Below, piece by piece: positions 15,386 through 41,305 of a stretch of DNA of 64,000 nucleotides (its first letter is position 1; every line of letters begins with the position of its first letter). The translations under genes and the position numbers were made by a program. The notes below the pieces were generated by a model. That model was not told the origin of the DNA. It worked only from the letters and a program-made list of their open reading frames with translations, and ran no database searches. The stretch lies in the NCBI GenBank assembly GCA_040954595.2, contig CM082579.2, forward strand, positions 16,034,550 through 16,098,549, written 5' to 3'. Source of the DNA: Balanoglossus misakiensis. Its lineage: Eukaryota; Animalia; Hemichordata.

Positions 15386-15610
15386 TATGGAAAGCCGTTG
15401 GGGACCCCCGACAACTTCTCTCAATACATGGGTAAAGTCCATAGACAAATGATAGGAACGCATATGCTGAAAATATGACGCACATTGGGTGCCGACGCCG
15501 TAATCTAAAATGCCGGTAACAACCAAATTTTTGCCGACACCTTTACTCAATCTACCGGCGCCGACAAAATCACAACCGGTGATTTGATGAGTTCTCGCAT
15601 CGGCGTTTCT
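15386..15610 (+). repeat. Left TIR (225 bp)
   Basis: Reverse complement of 41081-41305. Confidence 0.95.
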
Positions 15611-15946
15611 ACAGAGTTGTCGCATCGGCGTTTCAGCTAGAGTTTTCTCGCACCGGCATTCTACACATGCGCATTGGCGTTTCAGCTAAAGAGTTTTCTC
15701 GCATCGGCGTTTCTGGAGAGTTTTGTCGCACCGGCATTCTACACATGCGCATTGGCGTTTCAGCTAAAGAGTTTTCTCGCATCGGCGTTTCTGGAGAGTT
15801 TTGTCGCGCCGGCATTCTACACATGCGCATTGGCGTTTCAGCTAAAGAGTTTTCTCGCATCGGCGTTTCTGGAGAGTTTTGTCGCGCCGGCATTCTACAC
15901 ATGCGCATTGGCGTTTCAGCTAAAGAGTTTTCTCGCATCGGCGTTT
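15590..15946. repeat. Left subterminal array (78-bp period)
   Basis: About 4 copies. The same modules appear inverted at 40866-41100. Confidence 0.92.
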
Positions 15947-15954
15947 TCTCTGAT

Positions 15955-16020
15955 TTTCTGAGCATGCGCAGTCACCACTGCAAACAGAACTTGTGGAGCG
16001 AAGTTGTAGTGAAGGTAAGA
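15955..16020 (+). promoter_or_regulatory. Putative inward promoter and non-coding first exon (donor GAAG|GTAAGA at 16014/16015)
   Basis: An NRF1-like GCATGCGCA at 15962-15970 is followed by a consensus donor site. There is a copy at 8544. Confidence 0.45.
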
Positions 16021-17322
16021 ACAGTTATGTTCGTTTGCTAGTCTTTTCCGCTAGTTTCCTGCGAATCCACTGTCTCGTCTGTGTTATCTTTTTTAATTTA
16101 CTGTTTCCTAAACTCTTTTCGTGAACAAATTCTCTGGTTAGTTTACGTATTTCAGCCGATCATCCACAGAGAAAGTTCTCAACTTGAAATGATTGCTATT
16201 GATATGCTAATATGGCGCTCGCACGAAGTTAACTGAATGTCCATTTTGGGTGAGGGTCAGAGTTCGCTGGCTGGCTGTGTGGAAATCTAACTGGTACTCC
16301 TTGGAAAAGTGGCTGCAATTTGTAAACGGACAAGAAATTTTGTTCAGGAATTTAGTTTGGGAACAGAAAATAGTCAGTTCAGGGAGGTATAGGTCATTTT
16401 TTACTGTTCAAATGTTAACCCAAGTTGGGTTCCTGTTGGGAGTCCATAGCTGTTTGTTTTATGAGCCTACAGATAGTGAAACTGATAGTGACACAGCTGA
16501 AAAAACATGGGTTGATTACATTATTGGTTGGTTTCTATGGACACCTGCATTTCAATTAGATGTGGTGTTCTTGTTTTCATGTATAATGTTTGCACCTAAA
16601 GTGGTAAATTTAGGAACAAGTCTGCAGACCTTTTTCAGCAACAGTCAAAACGCAACTGTGTCATAATAATGCACTGGAATATGTTGAAAAGCTGAAAAAA
16701 AGAGAGTTCAACATAATTTAGAAAAGAACAAAAAGAAATGTAACAGATGATATACACTGTCATGGAATCTCCATGAATTTGATTGAACTCTTTATTTGAA
16801 CTTTGACTTTTCTTTCTAATGACATTCATGTAAATTTACATGATTTATTCCGATTTACCAACCAATTTATAAACTGTAATTTTACATTTTTTCACTATAA
16901 TGCCCCAATTTCGACTATGATATTTCACATTTGAATAAGGTATGATAAAATAAACAACTTTTGACAGTTAAGTTTACTACAGAAATTAAAAGAAACTTCA
17001 TCAAGAAGTCGCCAGATTTCATAACCGTTCATAGATTTCTGTCTGGGACAAATATAACCCAATTTGTTTCCATGTTTATTTGTTTTTCTAGTTTTGATGC
17101 AATAAGCCTGTTGTATATGTAATACTTGTCTGTGCAATTTTTGAGAACAATTAGAATTTCCTACCAAAATGGTAATAAACTGATAAAATGAACAATCTAA
17201 CAATTCAGATATTTTCCAATATAATTAGGATACAGTTAGGCCCTGAGCTATTCAGTTTGTGTCGATATACAACTAAACTGATACAATACTGGTGTTATAC
17301 CTTTGTTACACTTGCAGACATC

Positions 17323-18609
17323 ATGTTACTGGCCCAAAAATTGCAAACTTCATATAGAAACCAAGACACTGTAGCAAATGATGTCATCCTTCGCTTCAGA
17401 GATGGTCAGACGAGAAGGGCCCATTCATTGGTGTTGTGTCTTTTTTCGGATGTGTTTGCCGCCCGTTTGCATTCGGAATGGGCCAACGACAAAACCATTG
17501 ATTGTTCTGACTTTGATCCCTTACTCATGCAAAATGTCATTGATGATTTTTATTTTGAAAAGTTAAATATTACAAGTGAAAATGTTGAAGATTATGTGGA
17601 GATATGTAACTTTTACATGATAAATTCTTTAAAAGAGAAATGTGAATCATTTTTAATTTCCAACATTGTAACTTCCCGCAGTATTAGAGACCTTGTATTT
17701 TGTCAGAAATACCAGTTAGATAGTACTTTTGAACACTGTCTGTCAATAATTGATCAGAATGGTGTTAAACTGTTTAATTCTGAGCAAGTTTTGGAAGATT
17801 TTCTTCAACTTCCTGAAAGCATAGTTGTAAAAATAATTCAGCGTCAGACGCTTTCGGTAAAGGAAGACACACTTTTGAATGCATTGTTTTTATGGGTGGA
17901 AAGGAAACTTCAGGGTGTCAATGGCAATGATATGGATGCCCCCTTTTGTTTTGAGCCATTTCTTCCCCACATCCGTTTCTTGTCGTTAAGTGAAGAAAGT
18001 ATTCATCGACTAATTTCTGAACAAATTTTGTGTTATGAAGATGTCTTCCAGATATTAAAAGCAGTTCGACATCCTGGATGCAATTTTCCTGTTCCTGGTT
18101 ATGTGGATGTAATCACAAGAAATGTGGTTCTAAATAATGCCATTGTGGCGCGGCGTTTCATCAATGAAAAAAATCCAAACACATGGAAAGGAAACCAATT
18201 TGAGGGTGACAGGATTTCCTTTTCAATGGATGTTCCTGTCTCACTGCTAGGTGTTTATGTGTTTGGAAATACGGATGAAAGTGTCCATGCTCATGTCACA
18301 ATATTAAATCATCAACAAGCTGTTGTGTACAATACAGAAGCCTCAAACACTTCCCCCCAGATTACCTTTCCTGTTGTCTTCAGTAAGCTGATTAAAATCC
18401 AACCCAATGTAGATTATTCAGTTGTCTGTCAAATCAGAGGAAATAAAGAAACATCATTCGGGTCATGTGGGATCTCTCGCCGAAGAATCACAACATTAAA
18501 AAGTACTGATTTCTGGGTGACATTTAAAAATTTCAGTATGCAAGGTCTGAGCAATGGCACAGATGTCAGTCAGGGGCAAATCTCATCACTAATATTCTTT
18601 GATATATAA
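17323..18609 (+). CDS. BTB/POZ-BACK-PHR domain protein (BTBD1/2/3/6-like), intronless CDS, copy 2
   Basis: Same protein as copy 1. Acceptor ttgcag at 17317, ATG at 17323, and TAA overlapping AATAAA. Confidence 0.88.
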   Translation: MLLAQKLQTSYRNQDTVANDVILRFRDGQTRRAHSLVLCLFSDVFAARLHSEWANDKTIDCSDFDPLLMQNVIDDFYFEKLNITSENVEDYVEICNFYMINSLKEKCESFLISNIVTSRSIRDLVFCQKYQLDSTFEHCLSIIDQNGVKLFNSEQVLEDFLQLPESIVVKIIQRQTLSVKEDTLLNALFLWVERKLQGVNGNDMDAPFCFEPFLPHIRFLSLSEESIHRLISEQILCYEDVFQILKAVRHPGCNFPVPGYVDVITRNVVLNNAIVARRFINEKNPNTWKGNQFEGDRISFSMDVPVSLLGVYVFGNTDESVHAHVTILNHQQAVVYNTEASNTSPQITFPVVFSKLIKIQPNVDYSVVCQIRGNKETSFGSCGISRRRITTLKSTDFWVTFKNFSMQGLSNGTDVSQGQISSLIFFDI

Positions 18610-20426: not shown

Positions 20427-23400
20427 ATGTATAAGAGAAAAGAAGACCTGACCAAAGGTAAATGTGAAATGTACTGTAAATGTAGGAAGATACTTTTTCC
20501 CTTGGAAATTTTGCACTCGTCAATTTGGATAATTCACAAAAATTGTTTTCTAGAATTCGTATTTTTCAGCACAGTTGCTTTCTCACTTGATGCCTATGGA
20601 ATATCCAACTCATTGAAAAAAGTGCAAGTGTTCAAACAATTTAAGTAACACTTAATGTTTTTTATCCCTTGAAAGAGAGTCAAGAAGCATTGGGGCGACT
20701 AGCCGAACAGTTTCAGATGAAAGAGGCTGAAGTAAAATCAAAGAGACTGAAGCGATCTGTTCCAAAGCCACCAGAACAACAGGTAGGAATTGCAATCCAA
20801 ATGATACATACATGAAGAAAGATAAGAACTGCCTTTCTTGAAGTATTTTGGGAAGTTTTTAGTCCCCCCCCCCCACCACTAACCTTTTTGTATTTTGTCT
20901 ACACTTTTGTTTTCTTTCCATTCTACACCCAATAGCATGATGAATTGCCCAGTACATGTATTTAATTTCTCATCATCTAATTTACAGACAAGGTAAACAT
21001 TCTAGACACTGGTAATTTCATCATGCTTTAGGGAATAGAATAGAAGTGTAGAGTATACATACACAGGAAAGTATAGACCAAGGTTATGTACAGTTCAGCC
21101 TTTAAGCATTATACGTAATTGCTAGGAGTTATAACACATGTTTTCTTCATATCCATGCAATGTACAAGTCTTTTCCTTGTTAGTTATTTCCTGATTTTAT
21201 GAAAATTTAAGTTTATATTCATGCCATTTTACATACATTTATTAAAATTTTGATGTTTACCCTATTTTGTAACATTTTCATTCAGGTGTTTAATGTTACA
21301 CCACTGATAAAAGACAGTAAAGGAGTTCTAAAGAAAATGGGGGCAGTACTACCATCAGCTGTCGGCAGAAAAAGTCAGGTGGCCATTACCGTGGACAGTG
21401 GCTCAAATGCCATGCACTGGGCCCAGAGTGTATCGGCACACTTCATCGACGTGGATTTTGTACCTTATGAGATGAATGACATAGGAGTGTTCATAAGGAT
21501 GAAGGACCCAATGAATTTCCAATTAAAAGATCTGAAGGCAAAATACAAAAGTATGAAGGCGAAGACAGACAAGTTGCCAGTCTTCATGTTTGCAGTTGGG
21601 CAGAGTGAGTAAATCATGTCTATTTACATTGTCACAAGTTGTGTCAAGTATTTAACTGGATAAATTGAAAGGTTGTTTTTTTTCTTTGTGCCCGTTTCGT
21701 GTTGGATTATCCAGGTTAAAAAGTCATGGTAGTTTTTTATTATTCACTTGCTTCTTTTTAAACAAAAACAGACAAAAATAGAAGTGGCAGAACTTGTTTT
21801 GTTGGAAGAAAAGCGCCATTTCTGTCATTGTCACATGACTGGGCAGACCCCATTATCCAGTGGGTATCATTGGCATGGTGGACTTTATGGTTGGTATATT
21901 CATGCTATCATGCAATTATGCAAAGCCTGGCATGAACATAACAAATTCAACAAATGCCATTTTAGACATGTATTTGCAAAATTGCAGGATAGTGGTACCT
22001 GTCTGGTCATGTGACAATGGCCCAAGTATGGGCACTTTTATTCCAACAATGCTACCTCCAAGTTCCACCACTTTGATTGTGTAAGTGCACAGGTGCATTA
22101 TACTTGATTAACTTGATTATCTGACTCAAAGGTTGCACTAAAAAAGTTTCAGCCTTGTCTATCAGTGACCCCTTAAGGCAAAGTCTCTCTCTGCTTCTTG
22201 CTGCTTTTTTACATTAATTATGTTTGATACAAGATATTGTTTGTGTTATTAGGTCCCATTGGTATAGGCCTATATACCATGGGACCTTATGGGATGGGTT
22301 GTGTCTGTATGGATGTATGTATGTATGTCTGTATGTCCGTCCACATCAAAAACTTGAAAAACCGCTGCGCGTATCACCTTGATATTTGGTGTGCAGATGC
22401 AGGCAGGGCTGTAGATGGGAGTTTGTCCAAACGAAGTTGCCAGGCCCAAAAATATGCAAATTAGCCAGTAAAATGTGAAATTTATCAAAACTCTGAAAGT
22501 CAACAACTACTGCTCAGATTGCTTTAAAAATTGGTATGCATGTACCTTATGTCAACCTCACATCGACCTGTAAGTGTTAAGTTAATATCATGGATGTTTT
22601 ATTTTTTATGAATTTTTTAGTCTTTTTATTAAATTTATACCTTTACTTATACCTCTATGGTTAAGCTATGTCCACGTCTTATTGTGGAGTTCTGGTCTGT
22701 GCAATAGTCCTGTACAGTGACTGTCTATTGGTCAGTGAGCACAATGGGGCCAAAATAAAAGGCAAATTTTTGGGCTCACCTGTAACACCTGCTTAACACA
22801 TTAATTATGTGCATACCTAATTCCAGGCTAACCAATAAGGCTATAGGTTTGGTTTTTATTGAACATGGACCAGTATAAGGTCAAAATTTCTTGCCCAAAT
22901 TTTGCATGACCTCAGGTGACCTTTGACCTACTTTATCATATCTTGGCATCCAGAGCAGGTAGAGACTTCGCGTTTGGAGGGTTGGGACTAAAATTGAAAA
23001 GCCAAAATTGGGGGTCACCTGTGACACTTGCATATCTCATTAATTATGTGCATACCTAATTCCAGGCTAACCAATAGGGCTATAGGTTTGGTTTTTGTTG
23101 AACATGGACCAGTATAGGGTCAACATTTTATGCCCAAATTTTGCATGACCTCAGGTGACCTTTGACCTACTTTTCCATATCTTGGCATCCAGAGCAGATG
23201 TGCTTATTGCTATGTTGCTATGTTTTTACATGTAGACATACAGCGAATCAACATTCGACCACACACAACTTCCATTTCACTTGTATGATGATATGAGAAT
23301 AAAAACTCGCCCCAAATGAAAAAATGGTAGAGGAATATTATTCATTTTGGCGATGTTTTTTCACTCATGTCTTCAAGCCGAATGGAAGGTGTGTGTGGTT

Positions 23401-26400
23401 GAACGTTGATTCACTATATATCCACACATATAATAACATAAACGGTGTCTTGTATCAAACATAATTAATGGAAAAGGGGCAGCAAGAGAGAGACATTGTC
23501 CCTTTAATGACCTATTTTCCAGAGTAAATCTGTCCTTTTGTTATGTGTAGTCCCAGGTTAGAACTATGGTTTGTAGTTTCATTGCCAAAGGTTTAAGGAT
23601 CCTCCTACGAGAACATCTGGTCTTTGTATAGTCAACATTGAGAAATGATTTTAGTATGGACTAAAACTCAGTAGTAAATAATTAACAGTTTCTTTATGCA
23701 TATGTGAGCTATGCTGATGTGCTTATCAATTTTCAGGGCATTTCTGTATTGTGTATTTTTTTTTTGTATTCCACAGCAAAACATTCTTTGAAAGCATCCT
23801 TTGTTAAAAAGAAGCTGCAACTGCAAGACAAAGAGTTCGAGCAGCAAGAGGAACCTGAACAAGAACAAGAAATGGTCAAGGTATAATGGCATGAATATTT
23901 TAACATGTGAAATTTAGTCTGCCAGTGATGTCATGGTTTGTAATACAGTGTGGCATACAGTATCTACTGGCGATGAATTGAAATCTTGACATTTCAACAA
24001 AATTTATGGGGAACAAAAAATATAGTTTAAGCACAAAACAGCAACATTTTACAAAATCATAATTACAGCCAGATAGATATTTCATTTTTTTATTTTCTGT
24101 TATAGGGTACTGACAATGAAAAGTTAGTGTCCTGTGATCCTGTGTCCTGTGATCCTGTGTCCTGTGATGGTGTCAATGAAGATGTAGAAGTGATTGCGGT
24201 TGAAAATTCTGTTGACATAACAGTGGTGGAGGAGGTGGCAGCTTCATGTGAGGAATCCATGAAAGAATGTACTGCTGAACAGGCATTGAATTCAGAACAG
24301 GTTAGACATGATTAAGGTGGCACTGCATGAAACCGTCGAGACTTTTTCAGAGGCCTATTTCTCATCAAAGAAAAAGTTAAAACCCCCATAAACCATATAT
24401 ATTCTGGAAGCTGAGATTTTGAACTTTTGTTTGAGTTGCAAATATTATTGATCCCCGGAAATGGTGGCGATTTTGGGTGAAAAAAAACATTTTTTTGATA
24501 TTATGTCATGAAATTTAAAATAGGTAAAACAGTTGACCATGCATCATGCATCTTAATATGTCATTCAAAACTAGAGTACACGTGCAAAAAAACGCTAATT
24601 TTGTTTTGCGTTATCTGCTTCCATTGAGGAGTAACAGCGTTTAAAAGTTAGATTTTCAGAAAATTTGATCAAATTCACGGTGAGTTGTATTGAATCAGAG
24701 TTTATTCCCGCCAGGGACACTTTATCGACAAACAAAACTAGCGTTTTGTTGGATGGGTCATACACAATTCCCTGTCAAAATTTGAGCAAATTCGGCCAAC
24801 GCAGGGCGAAGCTATTTTAGTCCGAAGTTGTCAAGAGCAGCGAAAATGCAAACTGAGAAAAACGGCTATTTGCATTGTTGACACCTATTTGTTAAGCTGT
24901 GAACTCATTCAGAAAAGTGCTATTTTGGGGTGATTATGCACCATTTCCGCCAAGACGTATTAGTCAGGTTGTGGGTCAGTATTAGGCCTACCGATTTATG
25001 TAAAAAAGTAAAATTTGGCAAAAATCACAACTTTTCATGCAATGCCACCTTAATTAACTACTATAAATGATGGAGCAGGTTCTCCGAATAAATATTCGAA
25101 TGATCAGGCACTTCTAGTCAATACCAATTGTATTTATTGGCAAAATGTCTATTCTGCTACAGTAATACCTGTCGAAACTGAACACCAAAGTGACTGAAGA
25201 AATTATTCCATTTGCAAAGGTGTCTGGTTTATAGGGGTTCTTTTAACATGTGGTTCCATGTCAAAGGGACAGGAACATGTGTTCAATATAGATAGGTTTC
25301 AAGATTAGACAGGTTTTACTGCTGCATGAGGAAATATGGGGACAGTCAGAGCAGATATGATGGAAAATAACTCTGACTGGTATTTGCAAAGGTGTTGAAA
25401 GATTATGGAATGACTCTTAAACAAATGGGGCTTTCACATGTGATGTTTAGGCCGCCCCTGGGGGATATTGATTAGTCTAAGGTATTAAATGGTATCAATA
25501 TTAACGTTACAGGAAAGAGAGAAACAAGCTCAAAGGAAATTGCAGAGGAAAGATGTAAGTTTAGTCGAATTTTGATTCTGAGTCATACATTTGACTGGAT
25601 TGGTTATACTCCTACACCAAAGTGACAGTTTGGGCAATGATGTTAATACTGGATTGAAACGTGTTGATTGTCTTTGTAGTTTTTGATAAATTCTTCATTT
25701 TTACATTTATAGGATAGTTTTTGATAAATTGTTAATTTTTAGGTCCAATGTCTAAAAATTTAAAGCTCAGAGGTGCATTCTACTAAATGTTTGTTTTGTA
25801 CTTTCTCATCCACATACCTATTTCACGTTAGGCAAGGCAATCTCTTCCCTAGGAACCAGTTAGTCAGTGAATTGTCTGCTCAGGTTATGACACTCAATGT
25901 GTTTATTTCTTTACAGGCAGCACAGGCCAGAGCCGAAAATATAAGATTGCCCTTGATTAACGAAAGGAAAAGACAAATCTGCATCATGGTGAACGATGAG
26001 GTCCTGGAAAGGCCATTCAGAGACCTAGATACACTCAAAGTAAGTCAAGATATGGGCCATCAAGTGTAAATTGTGTGTTTCATGTTCACTGTTCAAATAC
26101 AGTCCGTTGCAGCCTTACAATGTAAGGCATTTCTGAGTGTAACTGCAGTCATACCAAAATAAAGAAACCAAGGTTTGGATTAATCATCATATTCTAGCAT
26201 TATAATTGTAAACATAAAAGAATCTATTTGCTTTGCAGGATGTCTTTGATTGGATTTGCGGTACAGTTGATTCAGAAGATCTTCCTTGCAGATTTTTTCT
26301 GCAATGTTTCGATCCTCCCAACTGTGTTGATTTTCAGTGTCAGCATGAATACCATGCCACAGCTGAGGCTGACTTCCTTTTAGTAGAATATCTACCAGAA

Positions 26401-26770
26401 ATGATGCTAGTGAAAGAGGTAATTTAATAATTTTAAATTTTTTTGATGATATTTGCATATTTCGGTGTTTGCCAATTTTGAGAGATTGATCAACTGTCTT
26501 TTTTAGCAGTTTTATACTGAAAATCGAGTTGTCCAAAAATGCACAACATTCTTCAGTCTCGTGAAACAGAATCCAAATGTTCACATAGTACAGCTATTCT
26601 GATTACCAAGTTTTATTTCGCATCACAAAATGTCAGTACATACACATGAATATGATAAACAATGTTTTTTAATGCATGAAATCACTTTTTTATTTGTTCA
26701 ACAGATTAGTGGTGACCTGGATGACACCCTAACAAACTATGATGATGTTCTTCTGTGTGGGCTGTTTTGA
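20427..26770 (+). CDS. Spliced cargo gene, 9 coding exons, 388 aa, with an acidic/coiled-coil middle and a putative C-terminal UBX/ubiquitin-like domain
   Basis: Exons 20427-20457, 20676-20782, 21286-21604, 23777-23880, 24106-24300, 25513-25554, 25917-26039, 26239-26418 and 26705-26770. All introns are GT-AG and phase-compatible, giving 1167 nt from ATG to TGA. The segment ICIMVNDEVLERPFRDLDTLKDVFDWIC resembles the UBX core; this domain call is tentative. Confidence 0.75.
22249..22640 (+). mobile_element. HINE/DINE-1-like non-autonomous element in an intron; 3' end approximate
   Basis: aggtccca-hairpin-tgggacct followed by a (GTAT/GTCY)n microsatellite at 22302-22342. Confidence 0.5.
22776..23197. 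repeat. Two ~183-bp direct repeats (period ~239 bp)
   Basis: tcacctgt...attaattatgtgcatacctaattccaggctaaccaata...cttggcatccagagcag at ~22776-22958 and ~23015-23197. Confidence 0.85.
23219..23440. mobile_element. Degenerate palindromic MITE
   Basis: gaatcaacattcgaccacacacaacttccatt pairs imperfectly with aatggaaggtgtgtgtggttgaacgttgattc. Confidence 0.7.
24316..25049. mobile_element. Non-autonomous TTAA-targeting DNA transposon (Kolobok-like, GG..CC termini), 734 bp
   Basis: TTAA|GGTGGCACTGCATGAAA ... TTTCATGCAATGCCACC|TTAA: a 17-bp TIR with 1 mismatch and a TTAA TSD. Confidence 0.8.
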
Positions 26771-26797
26771 ACTGTACTTGTGAACATTTTTTTTTAC

Positions 26798-26998: not shown

Positions 26999-27037
26999 AA
27001 GTATTAGCTGTTGTATTGTTCTCTTTAGTTGTGTAGT

Positions 27038-30000: not shown

Positions 30001-33000
30001 GGTCAAAAGCATACAGGTGACAATGCTGCACCTACTTTCCCAAGACCAATCATTGTGCGATTCTTAAGCAGGAAGAAACGCGACTATATCCACCGGAACA
30101 AAAAGAAGCTAGCGACCATTACAACTGGAGATATTGGATATGCCAATCGGAACAAAATCTACGTAAATGAAAATCTAACTCCAAAAGCACGCAAACTTTT
30201 TAAGATGACGAACGTGAAGCGCAAATCAGCACGCTATAAGTATGCGTGGACGCGGAACGGTGAAGTTCTTGTGAAGAAAAGTGAGCAGTCACCTGTACTA
30301 GTGATAAGGAATGAGCTGGACCTTGCCAAGATTGTATAAACCATCTTGTAGACATTTTCTTGGTTTCCCATATATTGCTTCATGCCAAACTCAGTAAATG
30401 ACATAGATGATGACATTTTCACAGTTACAAATCATATACTGGAACCGTCAACATTTAATGATAAATTTAGCTCTAGATCCAGCCATTCTTTCTCAGTATC
30501 TCATATTAATGCAAGATCTCTCTGTAATAGTATAGACGATGTACGTCTCCTGTATAATGAATGTATCACCAGTCCTTTTCACATTATTGGTGTTTCAGAA
30601 ACCTGGCAAATCAATAATCAAACTTTTTTTAATTTGCCAAATTACTCTTTTGAGTTAAATAGCAGAAACATCGGTCGGGGTGGCGGGGTAGGGGCATATA
30701 TTCATTGTTCTCTTAAATACAAACTGTTAAACTTTAATGTGGTTCATTCTGAATCACTATGGTTTGAAATATGCGGGTTAAAGAATCGCATAGTTGTCGG
30801 TGTGTTATATCGCAAACCAGGAACTAGTGTCACAGAGTTTGAAGACAGTCTTTTTAATGTTCTTTGTTCTTTGAAACTGGATAAAAAACATTGTATTCTT
30901 ATGGGTGACTTTAATATTGATGTGTCAAGTCCAGATTCAAGTGCTCGGGATTTTATACCAAGGATGCAATGTCTTCATCTAGAACAGTTAATCTCCTCCC
31001 CAACTCGTATTACAAGTACTTCCAAGTCGACCATTGATCATATTTATTCCAATATTAGCTCTTGTCACATTGATGCTGGTACAATTATTGCTGATATTTC
31101 AGATCACTTACCTATTTTCTCTATTTTCAACAACTTCAATGTCCACACGCCATTTGTACGGTCAGTTTGTACAAGGAATTTCAGGCGCTATAACTCTGCT
31201 CGTTTTATTTCTGATTTAATTAATGTTAACTGGAACGTTGTTATGCATAACAATAGCTGTGTAAACACTGCTTTTGACACCTTCAGCAATTTGTTCAGCC
31301 AGGTGTGTGACCATCATGCCCCACTTGAGGTTAAAACTATTAAGGCCAAGTGTAACAAAAATCCCTGGATTACCAAAGCTATTAAGAAGTCAATTCGCAC
31401 CAAACGCAAACTATATGCTAAAGTTGTCACCACACAACATGAACCAAGTGCTGTTGCTCGCTACACAACCTACAGAAATATTCTTACAAGTGTTTTAAGA
31501 AAAGCCAAAAGGGTGTATTATGCTAATTTATTCACTGTAAACAACAATGGTAAAGTGTGGAATGTTGTAAATGAGTTGCTTGGTAAAAACACTACTTTAG
31601 ATAAAGCACCAGATCAGTTAAAGGTCAATGTAAATGGGATTGAAAGGTTGGTAGATAAGCCAGCTGATATGGCTAAGTGTTTTAATGACTTCTTTGTACA
31701 TGTGGGTCAAAATCTGGCAAAACACATTCCAAAAACCACAAAAGATTTTAAAAATTATATGAATGATCCTATGCCAAACTCTTTTTTTCTCCATCCTGTT
31801 ACGGTTGCTGAGATAAAAGAGATTTTGGTGCATCTTGACAGTAAAAAGGCCAGTGGGTGGGATAATATTCCTCCAAGACTCCTAATTGATGCAGCTGATG
31901 TTATTGCTCAACCTTTGACCCACATCATAAATATGTCTTTCTGTACCGGTGTCTTCCCTAATTCCTTAAAAGTCGCTAAGGTTAAACCTATCTTCAAGAA
32001 AGGAGAACAGAACATTGCTGGGAACTACAGACCCATCGCCATTTTATCAATGTTCAGTAAAGTGATAGAAAAAGTGGTAAACAAACAAGTGATTACTTAC
32101 CTTGATAAATATAATATATTATATAAGCACCAGTATGGCTTTAGAAAGAACCATAGCACCAAGCACACTTTGATTAACTTAGTTAACCACTTGTTAAAAG
32201 AAATTGATAAGGGGAATTCCACACTGGGGGTGTTTATTGACTTCAGCAAAGCTTTCGATACCATTCACCATGCCACTTTATTGTCCAAGCTTGAACATTA
32301 CGGGTTTAGGGGCCCCTGCCAGCATTGGTTTAACAGCTACCTCACAGACCGCTCACAGTATGTCACATTAACCAGTCATGTTTCAGAAAAGTCCTTGATC
32401 CACAATGGAGTCCCACAGGGATCAGTTTTGGGCCCAACCCTTTTCCTTATTTATATCAATGACCTTCCAAATTCTTCTACATTTTTTTATTTCCGTTTAT
32501 TTGCTGACGACTCCAATCTCTTCCATTCCTTCTCAGGTGCAGATAGTATTAACTTGACTCATATATCCTCTTATTTAAATGATGTTCAGCAATGGTGCAA
32601 TGCCAACAAACTAACAATTAATAGGGCCAAGACTCACTTTATTATTTTTAGGGGTCGGCAGAAAAAACTTAATGTTCTTGGGTCATTGCAAATCCAGAAT
32701 GAAGAAATCAAAGAGGTTGATGTGATACCATTTGTTGGGGTTTTATTGGATAAGCATCTGTCATGGTCACATCAAATTAACAAAATAAATAATCTCATTA
32801 GGAAGCACTGTGGAATTTTATACAAGATTAGAAATATTTTACCACTCCATATCAGAATTTTGTATTACAACGCCTTCATACTCCCCCATGTTACATATGG
32901 TCTTGAGGTTTGGGGCAATACTTACCCCACAAAGTTACGTTGTATCCAAGTTGCCCAAAAAACAATTGTACGTATAATGCTTTTCAAATCACACATGGAC

Positions 33001-36000
33001 CATTCTTCTCCTCTCTTTAATCAACTGAATATTTTGGATATTACCAAGCTTCACAGTTATTTACTAGGTTCCTTCATTTATTATTTATATCACCAGAAAT
33101 CTCCACATTCACTTTCAGATTATTTTAACACAACAAGTCATGAGCATAATACCAGAATTTGGTTACATCACTATCTACGCCCGTTCCATGCCAAAACAAA
33201 CTCAGGCCAGTTCTCGATATCACATACTGGAGCAAAAATCTGGAACGATATTCCTCCACAAATTAAGTCTTCAAATACTTTATGCCAATTTCGTAGGACA
33301 TTTAAACAACACCTCTTAAACCAGTACAAATGAATTTGTAATTTTCTTGATGTAGTATGATGCTGTTTTGTTTGTTTGTTTGTGATTGTTGTTCCTTTCT
33401 TTTTTCCATTACCATTTGCAATGGATAACTTTACACTGTTGTAGTGAGATCGTACTTGAATCACGCTTCAAGCGTTCCCTCAACATTATCTTTTTTTTTC
33501 TGTAACCAAGCAAGCTATATTGTAGGAGTACAGGCTAGACTAGCTGTGGCTATTTCCTGACTCCATATTTACCCACCATTTGTATTTTTACCTATCATAT
33601 GTACCCTTTAATTAATGGGTAAATAAAACATTATTATTATTATTATTATTATTATATAACTGACCTGGTTAGCAGTTGAAGGACCATACCAAAAGCTGTT
33701 GTCAGCAAAAGCATCATCACCATCTGTCCTCAACATGGCTTGAGCAGTCATTATCACTCCTGTTTCTGTGCCATGATCTGCTCGCAAGATCCTGGGGCAA
33801 CCTGCAAACAAATTAGGATTGACATTGGCAGCTCTTACAGTTAAAATGTTAACCCCCCCCCCCAAAAAAAAAAAAAAATTGTACACACTAGATTTAATTT
33901 TTAAGAAAGATTTTCATTCCAAATGCTTTACTGCCTACACGTAGTTTCAATGTTTTTCAACACAGCCTGGATATGTGAAGATCATTACAATGTTGCCACA
34001 GGAAATATTGGGTACAAGACTAATATGAGCATGCAATGGATAATTGTCATTGATTAGTGGTTGGCTAAATTTATCGCCTTTACCCAGTTCAGAAATGTCA
34101 ATAAAACAAATTTTGTCAAAATGATATGTTTAACAACCTTGAGTGAATGTGTCTATTACCTTTCAGCTTCTCAACTGTGTCTATGAAATAGGAAGCAACT
34201 TTGCTTGGATCATTGTTTGATGCACCAACTTTCAACCACAACACCCTTCGCGAAAATCTATAGAAAACAAAGTTATTATTAATTTTCAAATTAAAAAAGG
34301 AATAAGTAAATTTCATTGCATAAACATATTTCCACAGAATTGTTACTAAATGTGCTTCATTAATCTTAGCTTTCATCAATATTGTGATTCTCAAAAAACC
34401 AATGGTGTTACAATGGGTCTCCAGCATTCCTCAGAAAGGTTTGTATAGATGATAAGTTGATAGCACTTACCCATCGATGCAACCATGAATGGCAAATCCA
34501 TATGGAGATAGTTTATCATACCCATCTAAAAAAAAAAATCAAAACACAATGTCATACATGCCTAAATGTAGGGATAAACTGTTAATGCCATCTTGAAAAT
34601 TTGCAGTGCATTATGGGTCAATTGAGTTCCGGTTGGGGGGAGTAGCGTCTACAACCTATCCATTTCCAGCGGTTTAGTCAGATTTTCTTCATGTAACTAC
34701 TACTACTAACGTTACTTGAAGAAAATCTGACAAAACTGCTGGAAAATTGGATAGGTTGTAGACGCTACTCCCCCCCCCCCAACTGGGACTCAATTGACCG
34801 ATAATGCACTGCAAATTTTCAAGATGGCGTTAACACAGTTTATCCCTATATTTAGGCATGTATGACATATATATATATATATAATACGATTTGGGAGTTC
34901 GTTGCAAGTACTGCTGGCAGAGTGCTCGATGGTGTAAATCCAGAGCTTGATAGTAGAGTGTGCAAGGGAACTAAGGCTGTTTTGACATAGGCGGTGTATT
35001 ACTGTTCAGTTTCGTGTAAGCGGGGCCTACACTCGTCAGATACTGATGCCTGAATGATGGTGAAGGGTGTGGACAACAGGGAATTGGGTAGGGTGGATAT
35101 GCAAATGGGCCTACATTTGAATGGGAGTGTGTATTGATTGGGGCTGTGTGGAGGGGTGCTGATTGGCCAGATTCTTCAGGAGGAATTTGCTGGAGTGGCG
35201 GCATGTGCTGACGAGTTCGTTACGTTTGTTGAGTGTGGCTAGTTTTGGTTTGCATATGATGAAATATTTTTCCCAAAGACATAGGTTGCATCTGTTGCTG
35301 GTGGGGGTATAGGGGCTAGCTTGTTTTATTGTTTTCCATGTGATTTTGTGTTCTATGTGCTCGTCCTTTAGTTTCCAAGTTCTGTACTGTTCTTTTTGGC
35401 GGCGTTCCTGAATGAGTCCTTGTGGTTGTTGAAGCGGGTCTTGAAGGTGTTGGCAGTTAGTCCGACGTAGGTTTGGTCTGGCTTGCTATCCTGCGTAGTA
35501 ACGGTGGCTTGGTATACAATTGATTCGGTCAGGCAGTGTCCTGACATTGGGCAGTTTGCAGGTGACCGGCAGTTGCATTGTTTTTTAGTGCTGTTGTCGT
35601 TGTTGCTGGAAAGTACCGATTTGTTGTGATTCTGGATGGTTTGTGCTGTGTTGCTCATGGTGCTGTAGCTTATTTTTACTGTGTTCCGGTTGAATATCTT
35701 GTGGAGGGTGTGGCTTGGTGGGAATTCTTCGTTAATTATTTTGAGGAACTCTCTCCCTATATGTGTGGCGACGTTTTTACTGTACGGTGGGGTGTACCAT
35801 ATTATGTTCCTGCTGCGGTTTCTCTTGTGGGCTTGTGGTTGTTCTGTTGGCGGCGTGAATTTCAGTTCATGTTTGTATCCGCTTTTGTAGATGGCCTGTT
35901 GGTATAGTGGTGCGGCCGTGTTGAAGCATTCGTCGTCATATGAAATTTCTGAGAGTCGCTTGTTGATGGATTCTGGTATGTTTTTAGGATTCCTGGTGGG

Positions 36001-38320
36001 TGGTTTGATTTGCTGTGGACGTATTGCGGTATGTTGTTGGGTTTCGTGTAGGGCTGGTATTTTCCGGTGGTTAGGTTCAGGGTGGTGTCGAGAAAGTTCA
36101 CAATTTTTTTGTTGGCTTCGATTGTGATTTTCAGTCCATATTGGTTGAAGATGGCGCAGAGGTCTTTCTTTTTGCGTTCCACTTGTCGTGCTGACGCCTT
36201 GATTATACCGAGGCCGTCGTCCCTGTATAGGCCAAATTGGTTGCCGTGTTTTTTGGTGATCTCGTGGAGTATGAATGTGCCGACAAGCTCGCATGTTTCG
36301 GCGCCATCGTAGCTCCCCATGGTTACGTCAAATAGGTTGGATGATGATTTTTTCGTCCATTGTTCATTTTCGTTGAAGAGGCATGATCTCTTGGCATGGG
36401 TGATAATTTCTTTTTCGTCATTGGTGATATTATCATGGTTGGATGCAAATTCCAGCGCTGTGTTGAGCAGGTCGGCCGAGATGGATGGGTAAAAGTCTAC
36501 CACATCGAATGCAATGAATGAATATTGGTGCTTGTTGGGGATGCTATTAAACCATTTTAGGACTGCTTTGGTGCTCTTCCATTGGTTGAGACCTGTCTTT
36601 GTGATGACTTTCTTGTTGATTCTGTCTAGTATTTGTTTGCTGATTTTTCCGATTTCTGATTTTGCTGGGTTGATGAGACGGCATGTAGGCTTGTTTTTGA
36701 AGTTGGGCTTATGGTCTTTCAGGGTTATGAATGCTTCCCTTTTGGCTGTGGTGTTGATTCTGTCACCAAGGTCTAGTTTTGCTGCAATGTGGGCGGCGTC
36801 GGTTTCGATCATTTTGGTGGTTTCCGGGGGGACCTTCTTATATGACTTAGTAATGTTCTTGCTTAGTAAGGTATTGTAGGAAGGGGGGTCCATCTTGTAA
36901 AAGTTGTTGGATTTGTCTGCTGGTGCGAGGAGGTCCTGGGATTTCTTGATTTTGCTAACATCTGATGCTAGTTGTCTTTGGAAGCGGCAGTTAATATTTT
37001 GAAATTTTATGTTTTCGATCATGTTCAGCAGCCTGCCTTCAAAGCTTACCAATTCTTGAATTTGCGGTGGTGTCTTTTTTTAGTTGAATCCGTATGTTTC
37101 TTTGTTTATGGCACGTGTTTCTGGGTTTAGAAAGAAGTAGGCTTTCCATCTCATGCGTCTGCATAGGTGCTCGGTTTTTTCTATCAGTTTCCTGTTGTAC
37201 TCACGTTCTGATGGTAGTCCGATGTTCTTCGTTGAATAGTCAAAACTTCTGGGTTCCATGACAGTGGTATTTGCGAAGAGTGCTCGACACAAAGGAGCGT
37301 AGTAATACGATTTGGGAGTTCGTTGCACGACGAATGCTTCAACACGGCCGCACCACTATACCAACAGGCCATCTACAAAAGCGGATACAAACATGAACTG
37401 AAATTCACGCCGCCAACAGAACAACCACAAGCCCACAAGAGAAACCGCAGCAGGAACATAATATGGTACACCCCACCGTACAGTAAAAACGTCGCCACAC
37501 ATATAGGGAGAGAGTTCCTCAAAATAATTAACGAAGAATTCCCACCAAGCCACACCCTCCACAAGATATTCAACCGGAACACAGTAAAAATAAGCTACAG
37601 CACCATGAGCAACACAGCACAAACCATCCAGAATCACAACAAATCGGTACTTTCCAGCAACAACGACAACAGCACTAAAAAACAATGCAACTGCCGGTCA
37701 CCTGCAAACTGCCCAATGTCAGGACACTGCCTGACCGAATCAATTGTATACCAAGCCACCGTTACTACGCAGGATAGCAAGCCAGACCAAACCTACGTCG
37801 GACTAACTGCCAACACCTTCAAGACCCGCTTCAACAACCACAAGGACTCATTCAGGAACGCCGCCAAAAAGAACAGTACAGAACTCAGTAAATACATTTG
37901 GAAACTAAAGGACGAGCACATAGAACACAAAATCACATGGAAAACAATAAAACAAGCTAGCCCCTATACCCCCACCAGCAAGAGATGCAACCTATGTCTT
38001 TGGGAAAAATATTTCATCATATGCAAACCAAAACTAGCCACACTCAACAAACGTAACGAACTCGTCAGCACATGCCGCCACTCCAGCAAATTCCTCCTGA
38101 AGAATCTGGCCAATCAGCACCCCTCCACACAGCCCCAATCAATACACACTCCCATTCAAATGTAGGCCCATTTGCATATCCACCCTACCCAATTCCCTGT
38201 TGTCCACACCCTTCACCATCATTCAGGCATCAGTATCTGACGAGTGTAGGCCCCGCTTACACGAAACTGAACAGTAATACACCGCCTATGTCAAAACAGC
38301 CTTAGTTCCCTTGCACACTC

Positions 38321-38418
<98 letters not shown>

Positions 38419-40570
38419 TAGTGGACAACAAAGGGACCGAAGAACTGTTTTGTTTGCAAAGGTAATTAGTTCATAGAGTTTATTTTAACTTGTGGTTCTG
38501 TGTCAAAGGGACTGAAAAATTTGTTTGGTAAGGACAGGTGTCCATGTTCAGAAGGTCCGGTTTAGACAGGTTCAGACTGTACAATCAGTTAATTTGCTTA
38601 CCAATGTGCCATACATAATTTGGTCCTTTACATCTGTACTCACGCCGTATTAACCGGCGATGCAGGCGTCGTTGAACGTTTATTGGATCCAGGATCCTAA
38701 GAAGTTTTCGTACAGTCTCCCTACAAAAAAAGAAATCTATTTATTACATATTTTAATAAAATAAGAATAATCTGCAATTTAATTGAAATGAGATTTGTAA
38801 TAAATCTGGGCCAAAGTTTTTATTCAATGAGTGAAATAGATTTGACATCTGCACTTCAACTTTAGATTAGCAGGGAGAATTAGGAAACAAGTCCATCACC
38901 TGTTATTTTCTTGCCAAGGGAGCTTATTCAAATAGCATTTCCCTTACATCAATCAGCCATTTCAAATAAAAGACCCTTGTTGATGATATCAATGAACACT
39001 TATGTTTGCATTATTGTTTTTATCATTCCAGTATTACAAAAAAAATTTTTTTACCTTTTAACCATCAATTGGTGCTTAGTTCTCAGGATAGCTAGCATTT
39101 CATTGGCTCCAACAATGCAGCCAGACCCTGTATTCAGTTCTGTCTGTAAATGAATAAAGGAAAGGATGGTTGGATAGATTGATAGATGTGTGAACAAATG
39201 AATGAACACATTCAATATTAGAATAGCTGACATTCACAGTTGAAAAAATTAGTTAATAAAATGTGACATAAATCGAATACTTTTGAAATTGCTTCTAATC
39301 CATGCAAGTGGTAGAACACAAACAACTGACATAAATGAATTAATTTCCTAGCAACAATGTCCCTCGCATATCTGCCCAAATGACAAAAGGGTGACCAGGA
39401 AAATGGAGTTCTTCTGCAAGATGTTCAGAATTTGATTTTAATTTGTTATACTGAATGTGTGCAATTAAGTCAGACTTGGGAAGTGGTGTCACTAATTAAA
39501 TGTAGGTTAGGGTAAAGAGCTTAACATACAAGCACAGCAGAAACAATGTCATCAAAAGATGACTGTGCTCTTCTCCCTTTTCGATAGAGTCCAAGGTGAT
39601 GGAGGAATTTGCGCTTGAAGTATGAAAACCTACAGAGTCAAAATAAAGTGAGAGTGAGTTGTACACTAAAGGGATAACATAAAAGGAAGAGACTGGTCAT
39701 TACACAATTTCCAAGTAACAGATAATAAAATAATGTAAGTTTACCACTCAAAAGTAAAGTTATTATGTTTTTAATGCTGTTTACCTCAAACGGAATCCAT
39801 GTTGTTTTACCATTACATAATAAATTAATTTGTGTGTATAACCATACGAGAAATACTTCTTAATGAGTTCCCTTTGCTCTGTAAGAAAATAATATTCACA
39901 AGTGACTTGTGTAAAATTGGCAATCTAACATAAAAGGAAATTATCTATCTGTTTGCATTAAATGCAGTATTTTGGTTTCAGGTTTTAGGTGTACATGTAC
40001 CCCTATTCTACAGCTTTGAAGAGCCAACCCCATCAAGGAACCATTCTGTTTTTTATCTAAGCATTAAATAGTGGTTTCATATATCCATGTAAATGCTGTT
40101 GTTTCATAAGAATTGGCCAGTTATTGTGCTATTTCCCAATTCATTCTAATGCTAGTTTGCATAGCTAAGTGCCAGTAAACAGTTAATTTGCCAGACTTCA
40201 CCAACATAATAATAATTCATTGTAGCAATCTAACACTGAGTGGGAAATAAATGGGAATTCAATTTCAACAAAATTAATCTGATTATTGCTGAATTTTAAA
40301 AGCTGAGAATTTCATCATGTTTAAATGCTGAACAAGAAACTGAAATAAACTGAGAACATAATAGTTGCTAGCCTGGTCTCCATACCCAGTGTGTTTTATA
40401 GATAGACTCGCACACTAGGTATGGATACCAGGCTATAGTTGAAATCTTAAGACACAGTAAAGCTTCAAATCTGATCAATGCCTTTCCTTCTTTCAATGTT
40501 TAGAAAGAACATGTAAAGTAACGTCATAAAATTCATAATGAAACTTACCTAGAGTAGCCATAATTCTCAT
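27038..40570 (-). CDS. IS3EU-like DDE transposase (integrase-core type), 12 exons, ~400 aa, one apparent 1-nt frameshift
   Basis: Exons 40570-40549, 39878-39785, 39629-39530, 39143-39055, 38720-38602, 34525-34471, 34257-34160, 33801-33665, 28841-28777, 28409-28363, 28074-27923 and 27261-27038, all with GT-AG introns. The spliced protein contains GPNYVWHI[D]GYDKL...[15 protein letters not shown]...PRILRA[D]HGTE...STANQRI[E]RWW...WNHHRIR. Ten of 11 junctions are in phase; exon 9/10 is 1 nt short. Confidence 0.88.
29527..30339 (+). CDS. LINE ORF1 protein (coiled coil + RRM-like/C-terminal domain)
   Basis: 270-aa ORF with a heptad region and motifs [32 protein letters not shown] and YKYAWTRNG. 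Confidence 0.9.
   Translation: MPRRKDQTPSGSSDSCQSTPPAGTPQSIENRLAEICSHVNHIPALLISIAELKESQSTIHSSLEFFNGLVEEVRGRVSTLELENKEVKETNAQLFTRITELEKSMESMNQYNRRENIELHGIPESADDGENTDAIVTRVLKKIDPGISDHDIVITHRLGQKHTGDNAAPTFPRPIIVRFLSRKKRDYIHRNKKKLATITTGDIGYANRNKIYVNENLTPKARKLFKMTNVKRKSARYKYAWTRNGEVLVKKSEQSPVLVIRNELDLAKIV
30382..33333 (+). CDS. LINE ORF2: AP endonuclease + reverse transcriptase
   Basis: Uninterrupted 983-aa ORF. APE motifs HINARSL, SETW, MGDFN, TIDH and SDHLP; RT motifs [22 protein letters not shown] and LFADD. Confidence 0.97.
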   Translation: MPNSVNDIDDDIFTVTNHILEPSTFNDKFSSRSSHSFSVSHINARSLCNSIDDVRLLYNECITSPFHIIGVSETWQINNQTFFNLPNYSFELNSRNIGRGGGVGAYIHCSLKYKLLNFNVVHSESLWFEICGLKNRIVVGVLYRKPGTSVTEFEDSLFNVLCSLKLDKKHCILMGDFNIDVSSPDSSARDFIPRMQCLHLEQLISSPTRITSTSKSTIDHIYSNISSCHIDAGTIIADISDHLPIFSIFNNFNVHTPFVRSVCTRNFRRYNSARFISDLINVNWNVVMHNNSCVNTAFDTFSNLFSQVCDHHAPLEVKTIKAKCNKNPWITKAIKKSIRTKRKLYAKVVTTQHEPSAVARYTTYRNILTSVLRKAKRVYYANLFTVNNNGKVWNVVNELLGKNTTLDKAPDQLKVNVNGIERLVDKPADMAKCFNDFFVHVGQNLAKHIPKTTKDFKNYMNDPMPNSFFLHPVTVAEIKEILVHLDSKKASGWDNIPPRLLIDAADVIAQPLTHIINMSFCTGVFPNSLKVAKVKPIFKKGEQNIAGNYRPIAILSMFSKVIEKVVNKQVITYLDKYNILYKHQYGFRKNHSTKHTLINLVNHLLKEIDKGNSTLGVFIDFSKAFDTIHHATLLSKLEHYGFRGPCQHWFNSYLTDRSQYVTLTSHVSEKSLIHNGVPQGSVLGPTLFLIYINDLPNSSTFFYFRLFADDSNLFHSFSGADSINLTHISSYLNDVQQWCNANKLTINRAKTHFIIFRGRQKKLNVLGSLQIQNEEIKEVDVIPFVGVLLDKHLSWSHQINKINNLIRKHCGILYKIRNILPLHIRILYYNAFILPHVTYGLEVWGNTYPTKLRCIQVAQKTIVRIMLFKSHMDHSSPLFNQLNILDITKLHSYLLGSFIYYLYHQKSPHSLSDYFNTTSHEHNTRIWLHHYLRPFHAKTNSGQFSISHTGAKIWNDIPPQIKSSNTLCQFRRTFKQHLLNQYK
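34549..34868. mobile_element. Palindromic MITE (~320 bp hairpin)
   Basis: atgtcatacatgcctaaatgtagggataaactg... is matched by ...cagtttatccctatatttaggcatgtatgacat, with arms of ~150 bp. Confidence 0.85.
34989..35051 (-). ncRNA. Type I hammerhead ribozyme (minus copy)
   Basis: Reverse complement of 38225-38287. Confidence 0.85.
35111..37259 (-). pseudogene. Penelope-like RT-GIY-YIG ORF, disrupted
   Basis: RT motifs [14 protein letters not shown] and LYRDD; endonuclease motif IVYQATV...YVG. Lesions are an in-frame TAA at 37080-37082, a frameshift near 35985, and a 13-nt deletion near 35378 relative to the plus copy. Confidence 0.88.
37327..38165 (+). pseudogene. 5'-truncated inverted Penelope copy with an open GIY-YIG frame
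   Basis: 280-aa open frame (CNCR..CP...[19 protein letters not shown]) that lacks the RT and a true start codon. Confidence 0.8.
38225..38287 (+). ncRNA. Type I hammerhead ribozyme (plus copy)
   Basis: gtat-CTGACGA-gtgtaggc-ccc-gcttacac-GAA-actg-aa-cagt-A-atac: complete core, stems I-III, GUA cleavage triplet, and stem I extended by aggc/gcct. Confidence 0.87.
38324..38416. repeat. (TA)n microsatellite
   Basis: Pure TA tract of ~90 bp. A shorter partner tract lies at ~34868-34883. Confidence 0.98.
40369..40435. mobile_element. Mini hairpin element TAGCCTGG..CCAGGCTA
   Basis: tagcctggtctccatacccagtgtg pairs with cacactaggtatggataccaggcta. Confidence 0.7.
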
Positions 40571-40865
40571 CAGCAACAGTTGCCTTGGAGTAGCATGTTG
40601 ATCTTATGCGCATGCTCTGTACGAACATCGGTTGACCACATGATAACAAACGTAAAAATTATAATTTGCTAATAACAATAATTTATTTAAAATATCTAAG
40701 CCTATAACGTTGAAAGACTTTTAGCTCAGTGTTCTAACAAATGCATGGGAGACCTAGCAGCAGTTCAGCATCTCGAGATTTTGCCTTGTGATTTACTCTT
40801 TGACTACAAAACCTTAACTAAAGAGGAGACCGAGAAGAAAAGGCCGCTGTCCAAAATCGCCGACA

Positions 40866-41100
40866 ACTCTTTAGCTGAAACGCCAATGCGCATGTGTAGA
40901 ATGCCGGTGCGACAAAACTCTCCAGAAACGCCGATGCGAGAAAACTCTAGCTGAAACGCCGATGCGCATGTGTAGAAATGCCGGTGCGACAAAACTCTCC
41001 AGAAACGCGGATGCGACAAAACTCTCCAGAAACGCCGATGCGACAACTCTCTAGCTGAAACGCCGATGCGATAACTCTCCAGAAACGCCGATGCGAGAAC
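40866..41100. repeat. Right subterminal array
   Basis: Inverted ~26-bp modules (gaaacgccgatgcgacaaaactctcc) in a different order from the left array. Confidence 0.9.
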
Positions 41101-41305
41101 TCATCAAATCACCGGTTGTGATTTTGTCGGCGCCGGTAGATTGAGTAAAGGTGTCGGCAAAAATTTGGTTGTTACCGGCATTTTAGATTACGGCGTCGGC
41201 ACCCAATGTGCGTCATATTTTCAGCATATGCGTTCCTATCATTTGTCTATGGACTTTACCCATGTATTGAGAGAAGTTGTCGGGGGTCCCCAACGGCTTT
41301 CCATA
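41081..41305 (-). repeat. Right TIR (225 bp)
   Basis: Ends ...cggctttcCATA, followed by the TSD ACAGAC and resumed satellite. Confidence 0.95.

Follow-up and report, generated by a model that had tools for sequence, protein, structure and literature searches.

Relation to Described IS3EU and GingerRoot Elements

DNA transposons of the IS3EU superfamily are defined by TA..TA termini and a 6-bp target-site duplication (TSD), according to passages of PMC10045372 and PMC12730594. In the passages of PMC10045372 and PMC6839031 covered here, IS3EU and GingerRoot elements carry these termini, a 6-bp TSD, terminal inverted repeats (TIRs), and an integrase-like DDE transposase. The element analyzed in this study, which lies in a 64,000-nucleotide stretch of Balanoglossus misakiensis DNA (referred to below as the window), has all of these features and the same core motifs in its transposase. 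Compared to the GingerRoot elements of clubmosses, as described in part of PMC6839031, it is larger (18 kb net versus 3.9–12.9 kb) and has longer TIRs (225 bp versus 100–150 bp), and it contains whole intron-bearing extra genes whereas GingerRoot contains gene fragments only. The same part of PMC6839031 presents GingerRoot and Pack-MULEs as picking up gene fragments passively, and GingerRoot as having no sequence-specific target. UBX, HECT, and BTB genes go unmentioned in the IS3EU and GingerRoot passages searched in PMC10045372 and PMC6839031.

The TET-bearing IS3EU and Styx elements of fungi, in the passages available from PMC12730594 and PMC10853768, share several properties with the element in the window. 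First, they have the same TAYGG..CCRTA ends. Second, they carry a second gene opposite to the transposase and a third, optional gene. Third, an anti-silencing role has been proposed for them, as it is here. The fungal genes encode alpha-kinases and TET/JBP or DNA-binding proteins, whereas those in the window are ubiquitin-pathway genes and the host is an animal. For IS3EU elements of rust fungi, the passages of PMC12730594 name alpha-kinase and TET as second genes; for Styx, those of PMC10853768 give four frames.

A conference suggestion by Kapitonov, found in a passage of PMC3520738, holds that captured host proteins in DNA transposons regulate transposition. In Hydractinia, IS3EU-like repeats gather at putative centromeres (a passage of PMC11934779). 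The literature searched yielded no paper joining HECT with IS3EU, a pairing that Repbase or the Kojima 2019 review may already annotate, and none joining a transposon with BTB-BACK-PHR, subscription papers lying outside the scope of that search; the sole paper found for UBX, transposase, and TIRs was unrelated. The gene set is also undescribed in the portions covered of PMC6431247, PMC9587614, PMC4455052, and bioRxiv 10.1101/2021.09.26.461848. Membership in the IS3EU/GingerRoot superfamily is the known part of the element, and its gene content, a HECT-less gene B together with a BTB-BACK-PHR gene, is the new part.

Ends, Target Site, and Surroundings of the Element

The element belongs to the IS3EU/GingerRoot DNA transposons and sits within a satellite array. 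Its ends and surroundings are as follows.

5184..12651, plus strand: tandem duplicate, equal to 12652–20121 (99.96%, 1 mismatch, 2 gaps)
15380..15385, no strand: left TSD copy ACAGAC, abutting the left end of the element
15386..15660, plus strand: left TIR, starting TATGG (275 nt at 97%, 225 bp perfect)
15592..15946, plus strand: left subterminal 78-bp repeats with 27-bp sub-units, from repeat comparison
40862..41099, minus strand: right subterminal repeats, from repeat comparison
41031..41305, minus strand: right TIR, ending CCATA and pairing with the left TIR
41306..41311, no strand: right TSD copy ACAGAC, abutting the right end of the element
41312..64000, plus strand, also 1–7915 and 12652–15379: host macrosatellite in units of ~1.9–2.2 kb

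A first-pass annotation of this DNA had assigned the element to IS3EU, with 225-bp TIRs of the form TATGG..CCATA, an exact 6-bp TSD, a net size of about 18 kb, and a position within a macrosatellite, and the present analysis agrees with it on each of these points. The identity follows from the TA..TA termini (TAYGG..CCRTA), the 6-bp TSD, the TIRs, the PF24764-bearing homologues of the transposase, and its core motifs. When the two TIR arms were compared with each other, the first mismatch fell at position 226; with the 78-bp subterminal repeats included, the arms match over ~470 nt at 92%. The subterminal repeats likely form a transposase-binding array. The TSD reads ACAGAC on both sides and can be taken as real, because at 16 empty satellite sites within the window, in the same flanks as those of the insertion, ACAGAC is present once. 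On the left flank (15375–15385), the TSD is preceded by CCATG, which has four of five letters in common with the element end CCATA; the likeness may be either chance or a target preference. The full element measures 26 kb, of which 18,015 bp are left once a LINE and a Penelope-like element, with ends set by eye, are taken out.

Satellite DNA lies on both flanks, and the target position occurs once per unit. Each unit is composed of an 81/162-bp array and an AT-rich spacer. A motif in the spacer near 41548 resembles Helitron/Helentron ends, and the array may consist of tandem non-autonomous rolling-circle elements. The 7,470-bp tandem duplication, which is absent from the first-pass description, holds satellite, a second left TIR at 7916, and a second copy of the BTB gene at 9853–11139. 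One of its breaks falls within the element (20121) and the other within a satellite spacer, and the duplication may be either real and very recent or an artefact of assembly.

The Transposase Gene and Its Nested Elements

The transposase gene occupies the right part of the element and contains several insertions.

27038..40561, minus strand: IS3EU DDE transposase, 12 exons, ~397 aa, from homologue alignment and tblastn
28777..28790, minus strand: exon 9 lacks one base at its end, past the catalytic Glu, judged from the frames of the homologues
29190..33655 (5′ end approximate), plus strand: CR1/L2-like LINE, antisense in transposase intron 8
34549..34868, no strand: small palindromic insertion in transposase intron 5
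34885..38323, no strand: Penelope-like element, RT frame broken, arms inverted and 1 kb long, in transposase intron 5

The 12 exons and the DDE character of the transposase proposed earlier are borne out; the frameshift described below is absent from the first-pass annotation. Exon 8, used as a protein-search query, found two proteins, one in Ptychodera flava and one in Glandiceps talaboti, both acorn worms. Taken by themselves, these homologues would make the host likely to be an acorn worm or to have exchanged the element with one. The transposase model is 76% identical (247/326) to P0001 of P. flava and 64% identical (255/396) to P0003 of G. talaboti. When both homologues were used in tblastn, exons 2–12 were matched exon by exon and the 13-nt exon 1 was left unmatched. 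Both homologues carry PF24764 above the cut-off, and the catalytic D, D, and E are invariant in all seven aligned transposases. By eye, the core motifs agree with the Repbase IS3EU cores in the portion covered of the supplement of PMC10045372. The HHCC motif, whose absence is a trait of IS3EU, was not seen in the transposase model. The viral contigs searched held no relative of the transposase and none of the BTB protein.

In G. talaboti, one identical transposase (P0003) stands under three accessions on two contigs. This multiplicity points to a recent spread within G. talaboti and to a sister family that is likely active.

At the end of exon 9, where the homologues have H-F-K or N-H-F-K, the window copy lacks one base, and exons 10–12 are out of frame; the transposase frame of this copy is thus not intact. 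Public sequencing runs bear on this site. Runs X1 and X2 are two runs of one sample, which may be a different individual from that of the window. A run contig spanning the frameshift site has 597 letters over the 596 positions 28235–28830. The transposase may be intact in the main version of the runs, and the shortfall is possibly an assembly error.

The LINE looks intact, with an ORF1 of 283 aa that has a Baculo_FP_2nd Pfam match, an endonuclease-RT frame of ~990 aa, and an ATT tail, and it may occur mainly inside the transposon; a TSD was looked for at its ends and not found. The Penelope-like element, which is assigned to that family by its motifs, gave no Pfam RT match, and its stretch (34885–38416) adjoins a (TA)46 run.

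Two extra genes lie between the TIRs, as the first-pass annotation had stated. It had described them as convergent, and convergence on each other was rejected: both lie in tandem on the plus strand and converge on the transposase instead. The stop codons of the transposase and of the nearer of the two, gene B, are 268 bp apart, tail to tail.

Gene B, a Probable Old Partner of the Transposase

Gene B was delimited as follows.

20427..26770, plus strand: gene B, 9 exons, 388 aa, from 8 GT-AG introns and 388 open codons
24312..25049, no strand: 738-bp inverted-repeat insertion with TTAA flanks, in gene B intron 5

The protein comprises a conserved N-terminal domain of no known family, an acidic linker, a basic helix, and a UBX-like C-terminal domain. 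A HMMER search of 1.84 billion representatives with exon 3 gave three hits, one of them real: P0004 of P. flava (XP_070548833.1, 432 aa; E 1.6e-26). The other two, P0005 and P0006, are unrelated repeat proteins with repeat-driven matches and were discarded as homologues. P0004 is collinear with gene B from end to end. Identity is 51% over the N-terminal 170 residues and 48% over the C-terminal 136 residues, compared to 24% in the linker, and this difference argues for selection on the gene B protein.

The accession number of P0004 is two away from that of the closest transposase, P0001 (XP_070548835.1), with XP_070548834.1 between them, and XP_070548833.1 and XP_070548835.1 have the same longest contig, of 203,092 bp. 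Judged from the accession numbers and the shared contig, the two P. flava genes are most likely neighbours. The notion of a freshly captured UBX gene, or a stray host gene, was rejected on the ground that the sole real homologue most likely pairs with the transposase in P. flava. Gene B had been described at first as host-like cargo; the probable pairing and the collinearity of P0004 point instead to an old partner of the transposase.

It had also been credited with a UBX domain that recruits p97. A UBX-like domain scores below the threshold, and the loop expected to bind p97 is missing from gene B. Pfam found no UBX match in single exons of gene B, gave P0004 16.1 bits for UBX against a cut-off of 21, and scored L001, a metagenome locus described below, under the cut-off as well. 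According to passages of PMC5389986, the signature R...FPR defines p97 binding in UBX domains, with OTU1 (YPP) and NPL4 as exceptions. This signature is absent from gene B, P0004, and L001, which read FDPP, YDGE, and FSPE, respectively, at the p97 loop. Compared to FAF1/FAF2-type UBX cofactors of p97, as presented in the same passages of PMC5389986, gene B has the same helix followed by a UBX-like domain and the same ERxF...D.+..VFDW pattern, but it lacks R...FPR, UBA, and UAS, and its N-terminal domain is unrelated. Its C-terminal domain may, as a weak call from sequence, be assigned to a UBX-like fold of the FAF1 type without the FPR loop.

Other searches were made with gene B and its homologue. 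A word-index search with exon 3 gave no match and an Atlas feature search gave no usable one. In the Atlas structure search with P0004, the first-ranked cluster was 59% HECT and 7 of the best 10 rows were UBX-bearing clusters; all scored below 0.9, under the naming bar. An AlphaFold model of P0004 (pLDDT 38.6) was unusable. Searches of the PDB gave nothing for exon 7, for P0004 alone, or for a profile of P0004 with the exons, and a match of exon 8 to complement factor H (E 0.011) was rejected as chance. The N-terminal domain had no match in the 31 related loci considered in the next section.

In both runs, the main contig passes over the 738-bp insertion in intron 5, which is presumably Kolobok- or piggyBac-like. 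Intron 3 (22250–23500) holds several small repeats of very high depth, including a 239-bp tandem pair.

HECT Ligase Genes Facing Related Transposases

A scan of metagenome contigs gave 31 loci with related transposases, in 18 DNA clusters. Downstream of the transposase, 93 reverse-strand frames of at least 52 aa, from 18 of the 31 loci and 13 clusters, were searched for HECT; eight loci with fewer than 480 bases downstream and five near-copies were left out. Six of the 13 scanned clusters contain a HECT ubiquitin ligase that faces the transposase, and the ubiquitin-pathway theme noticed in the first-pass annotation is thus wider than this element. The convergent HECT genes, all on marine metagenome contigs, are as follows.

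L001:3997-5920: HECT, at or above the cut-off
L005: HECT, below the cut-off
L007: HECT, at or above the cut-off
L010:2624-3496: HECT, at or above the cut-off
L012:3942-4211: HECT, at or above the cut-off
L026:9555-12270: HECT, at or above the cut-off

The catalytic Cys is kept in all six. No HECT was seen in the other 7 of the 13 clusters, mostly with short downstream DNA, or in 2.4–3.3 kb at L011, L022, and L030, which belong to HECT-bearing clusters. A TIR pair was not found in the three of the 31 loci that were checked; the repeated adjacency suggests that the HECT genes lie inside their elements. At L006 (543–911), a Myb/SANT-like (PF13873) frame is located upstream of an IS3EU-like transposase fragment and is perhaps a nested Harbinger.

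At L001, a frame with a coiled coil and a UBX-like segment lies ahead of the HECT domain. This frame matches FAF1 in the PDB (E 2.7e-6), and its UBX-like segment aligns collinearly with gene B and P0004. With a profile of the C-terminal domains of gene B and P0004, it was the sole match among 2,083 frames (E 0.055). In pairwise shuffle tests, the real score was equalled or exceeded in 1 of 2,000 shuffles for gene B and 44 of 2,000 for P0004, and an hhalign comparison of gene B with the UBX-HECT genes was not significant (probability 0.8%, E 0.07). A model of the L001 segment (pLDDT 67) has a beta-beta-alpha-beta order; Foldseek gave no match for it, and the VIA rows were taken up by a long helix.

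The element in the window thus has in common with these animal IS3EU-like loci a tail-to-tail second gene, with a coiled coil and a UBX-like segment on their side that can be aligned to gene B. It differs in that gene B ends right after the UBX-like segment, without HECT, and in that a BTB-BACK-PHR gene lies upstream. A search of 1,137 frames from the element found no HECT (best E 0.72), and P0004 has none either. In a midpoint-rooted transposase tree of 13 rows, from which 21 loci were dropped as short or near-copies, HECT is found in both halves of the tree as divided by its deepest split, and the transposases of acorn worms form one branch (89/84). This placement fits a loss of HECT in the gene B lineage, and is no proof of it. 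We infer that gene B and the UBX-HECT genes share an ancestor; probably, gene B is a version without HECT of a ubiquitin gene, UBX-HECT, that occurs lineage-wide.

What such a gene might do for a transposon can be considered by analogy with phage Mu, whose transpososome is disassembled by ClpX. Gene B and the UBX-HECT genes might act on the transposase of their own element, either tagging or unfolding the spent transpososome for gap repair or limiting the level of transposase. Such a role would agree with their lasting tail-to-tail arrangement beside the transposase across animals, and with the suggestion that captured host proteins act as regulators (PMC3520738, in a passage). However, fungal IS3EU elements have unrelated second genes (PMC12730594 and PMC10853768, in part) and clubmoss GingerRoot has gene fragments only (PMC6839031, in part), so the step is not universal, and we consider this role unlikely. 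More generally, since different lineages of IS3EU carry different second genes in the passages covered of PMC12730594, PMC10853768, and PMC6839031, a counter-defense function is favored over a core step of transposition, which is unlikely.

The BTB-BACK-PHR Gene

The second extra gene lies upstream of gene B.

16591..16900, no strand: 310 bp that the main contig lacks in X1 and in X2, from run contigs
17323..18609, plus strand: BTB-BACK-PHR gene, single coding exon, 428 aa, from Pfam

The domains named in the first-pass annotation were all recovered: Pfam gives BTB (56.9 bits), BACK (30.7 bits), and PHR (71.6 bits) in this order, each above its cut-off, and the PHR part matches BTBD2. BTB-BACK-PHR proteins of the BTBD1/2/3/6 type, which have the same domain order, are Cullin-3 adaptors, and the product is predicted from its domains to be one as well. 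It differs from them in being highly diverged, in lying inside a transposon, and in being broken in the main version of the runs. A protein search at E 1e-10 returned 0 of 3,583 candidates, an exact look-up found the protein absent, and the 31 related transposase loci hold no relative of it; by sequence, the gene is very diverged. The probability that 428 codons stay open by chance is 5e-14 under random codons.

Both window copies of the gene read TCA at codon 10. In runs X1 and X2, the sole covering contig has G at 17351, which turns this codon into the stop TGA; after it, no in-frame Met occurs until codon 69, within the BTB domain. At least four coding differences were found among the rows listed (40 of 528): one stop, two residue changes, and one silent change. 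Rescue of the stop by a downstream splice acceptor is not supported, with a lone in-frame AG at 17410 and a middling tract. The gene was thus once under selection and is broken in the version that dominates runs X1 and X2. The stop at codon 10 in both runs argues that it is dispensable, and it is likely a later addition.

These data bear on a reading in which one ligase was exchanged for another: HECT would have been lost and replaced by a captured Cullin-3 adaptor, with the BTB-BACK-PHR protein ubiquitylating a target and gene B recruiting p97, as one module. Relatives have HECT while the 1,137 frames of the element have none, and the BTB gene is open over its 428 codons with all three domains, on the same strand as gene B and at the same flat X1 depth (683–737) as gene B and the transposase. 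However, the codon-10 stop in both runs with the next Met within the BTB domain, the missing FPR loop, and the failure to find a BTB relative in the 31 loci or a close one in the protein search make the exchange doubtful. We hold equally doubtful its widest form, in which animal IS3EU elements carry a ubiquitin-ligase module of their own and this lineage dropped HECT, kept the UBX-like adaptor, and captured BTB-BACK-PHR to hijack Cullin-3 as viruses do, destroying a silencing factor or the spent transpososome. The ubiquitylate-and-extract module of the first-pass annotation is not supported in the form given there, in view of the BTB stop in both runs, the missing FPR loop, and the frameshifted transposase. 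With the stop codon in the runs and the loop missing, a module working today is less likely.

At the other extreme, both extra genes might be passive passengers without benefit to the element. GingerRoot and Pack-MULEs take up gene fragments in this way (PMC6839031, in part), and the BTB gene is broken in the main version of the runs. Gene B, by contrast, is whole, conserved by domain, and paired with a transposase in a second species, and the catalytic Cys is retained in all six HECT partners. For the two genes together such a status is very improbable; for the BTB gene only, it may hold.

Copies of the Element in Sequencing Runs

Coverage in run X1 is flat, at a depth of 683–737, over the unique portions of all three genes (BTB, gene B, and transposase); the LINE 5′ region is at 605–692, a value close to that of the transposon. 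The right TIR is linked to the satellite flank and TSD known from the window in one contig of depth 745. A further two TIR-like ends, at depths 38 and 50 and with 8 and 3 differences, have other, non-satellite flanks; by hand comparison, the two-contig consensus behind the TIR in X2 consists of one of these other flanks and the left flank of the window itself. In runs X4 and X5, which carry another organism label (share 0.05), the satellite and small repeats are covered, and X4 has no TIR depth; run X3 gave no coverage. If a depth of 38–50 is that of a single copy, about 15–19 copies would have one junction, the LINE, and the BTB stop in common, contig depth being no copy number. The window copy has private features, namely the 738-bp and 310-bp stretches that are skipped in the runs.

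The first-pass annotation had raised the prospect of both extra genes in independent insertions. No such insertion was seen among the TIR junctions of the run contigs, which consist of one dominant junction and two low-depth ends with other flanks. Because one right junction has a depth of 745, compared to 38 and 50 for the others, the simplest reading is that the high-depth sister copies were likely multiplied together with the satellite and not by separate jumps.

The same pattern might instead reflect an active element that targets the satellite in a sequence-specific manner, without amplification of the array. The target occurs once per satellite unit, with 16 sites empty; the run contig is one letter longer at the frameshift stretch, and the main version may be intact; and IS3EU-like repeats pile up at putative Hydractinia centromeres (a passage of PMC11934779). 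Against targeting, the copies also have the LINE 5′ region (depth 605–692) and the BTB stop in common, and two other TIR-like ends lie in non-satellite flanks. In addition, the window itself holds a tandem duplication of part of the element, and GingerRoot has no sequence-specific target in the passages of PMC6839031. We regard targeting as quite improbable, and amplification along with the array as the preferred reading.

Proposed Role and Implications

Collectively, the results are best described by an IS3EU transposon within a satellite whose gene B is likely a HECT-less form of a UBX-HECT gene that travels with many animal IS3EU elements and would most likely remove a host silencing protein, the BTB gene being a probable later, dispensable addition. 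We consider this account as a whole to be somewhat more probable than its opposite. Its steps may be put as follows. First, the DDE transposase would act on the TIRs and the subterminal repeats, from which we infer cut-and-paste movement. Second, gene B would be an adaptor of the ubiquitin system descended from UBX-HECT genes. Third, it would serve in counter-defense, through ubiquitin-dependent removal of a host repressor. Fourth, the captured BTB protein could for a time have supplied ligase activity through the Cullin-3 of the host. The copy in the window is a damaged one, with its frameshift and nested elements.

IS3EU is a little-studied superfamily. If the account is true, a ubiquitin gene kept beside the transposase in distantly related animals would make this a rare case of a cut-and-paste transposon with a protein-turnover tool of its own, and it would offer a concrete test of how DNA transposons of animals evade silencing. 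A HECT-less form in two species, together with a captured gene for a predicted Cullin-3 adaptor, would provide a natural comparison of two types of ligase.
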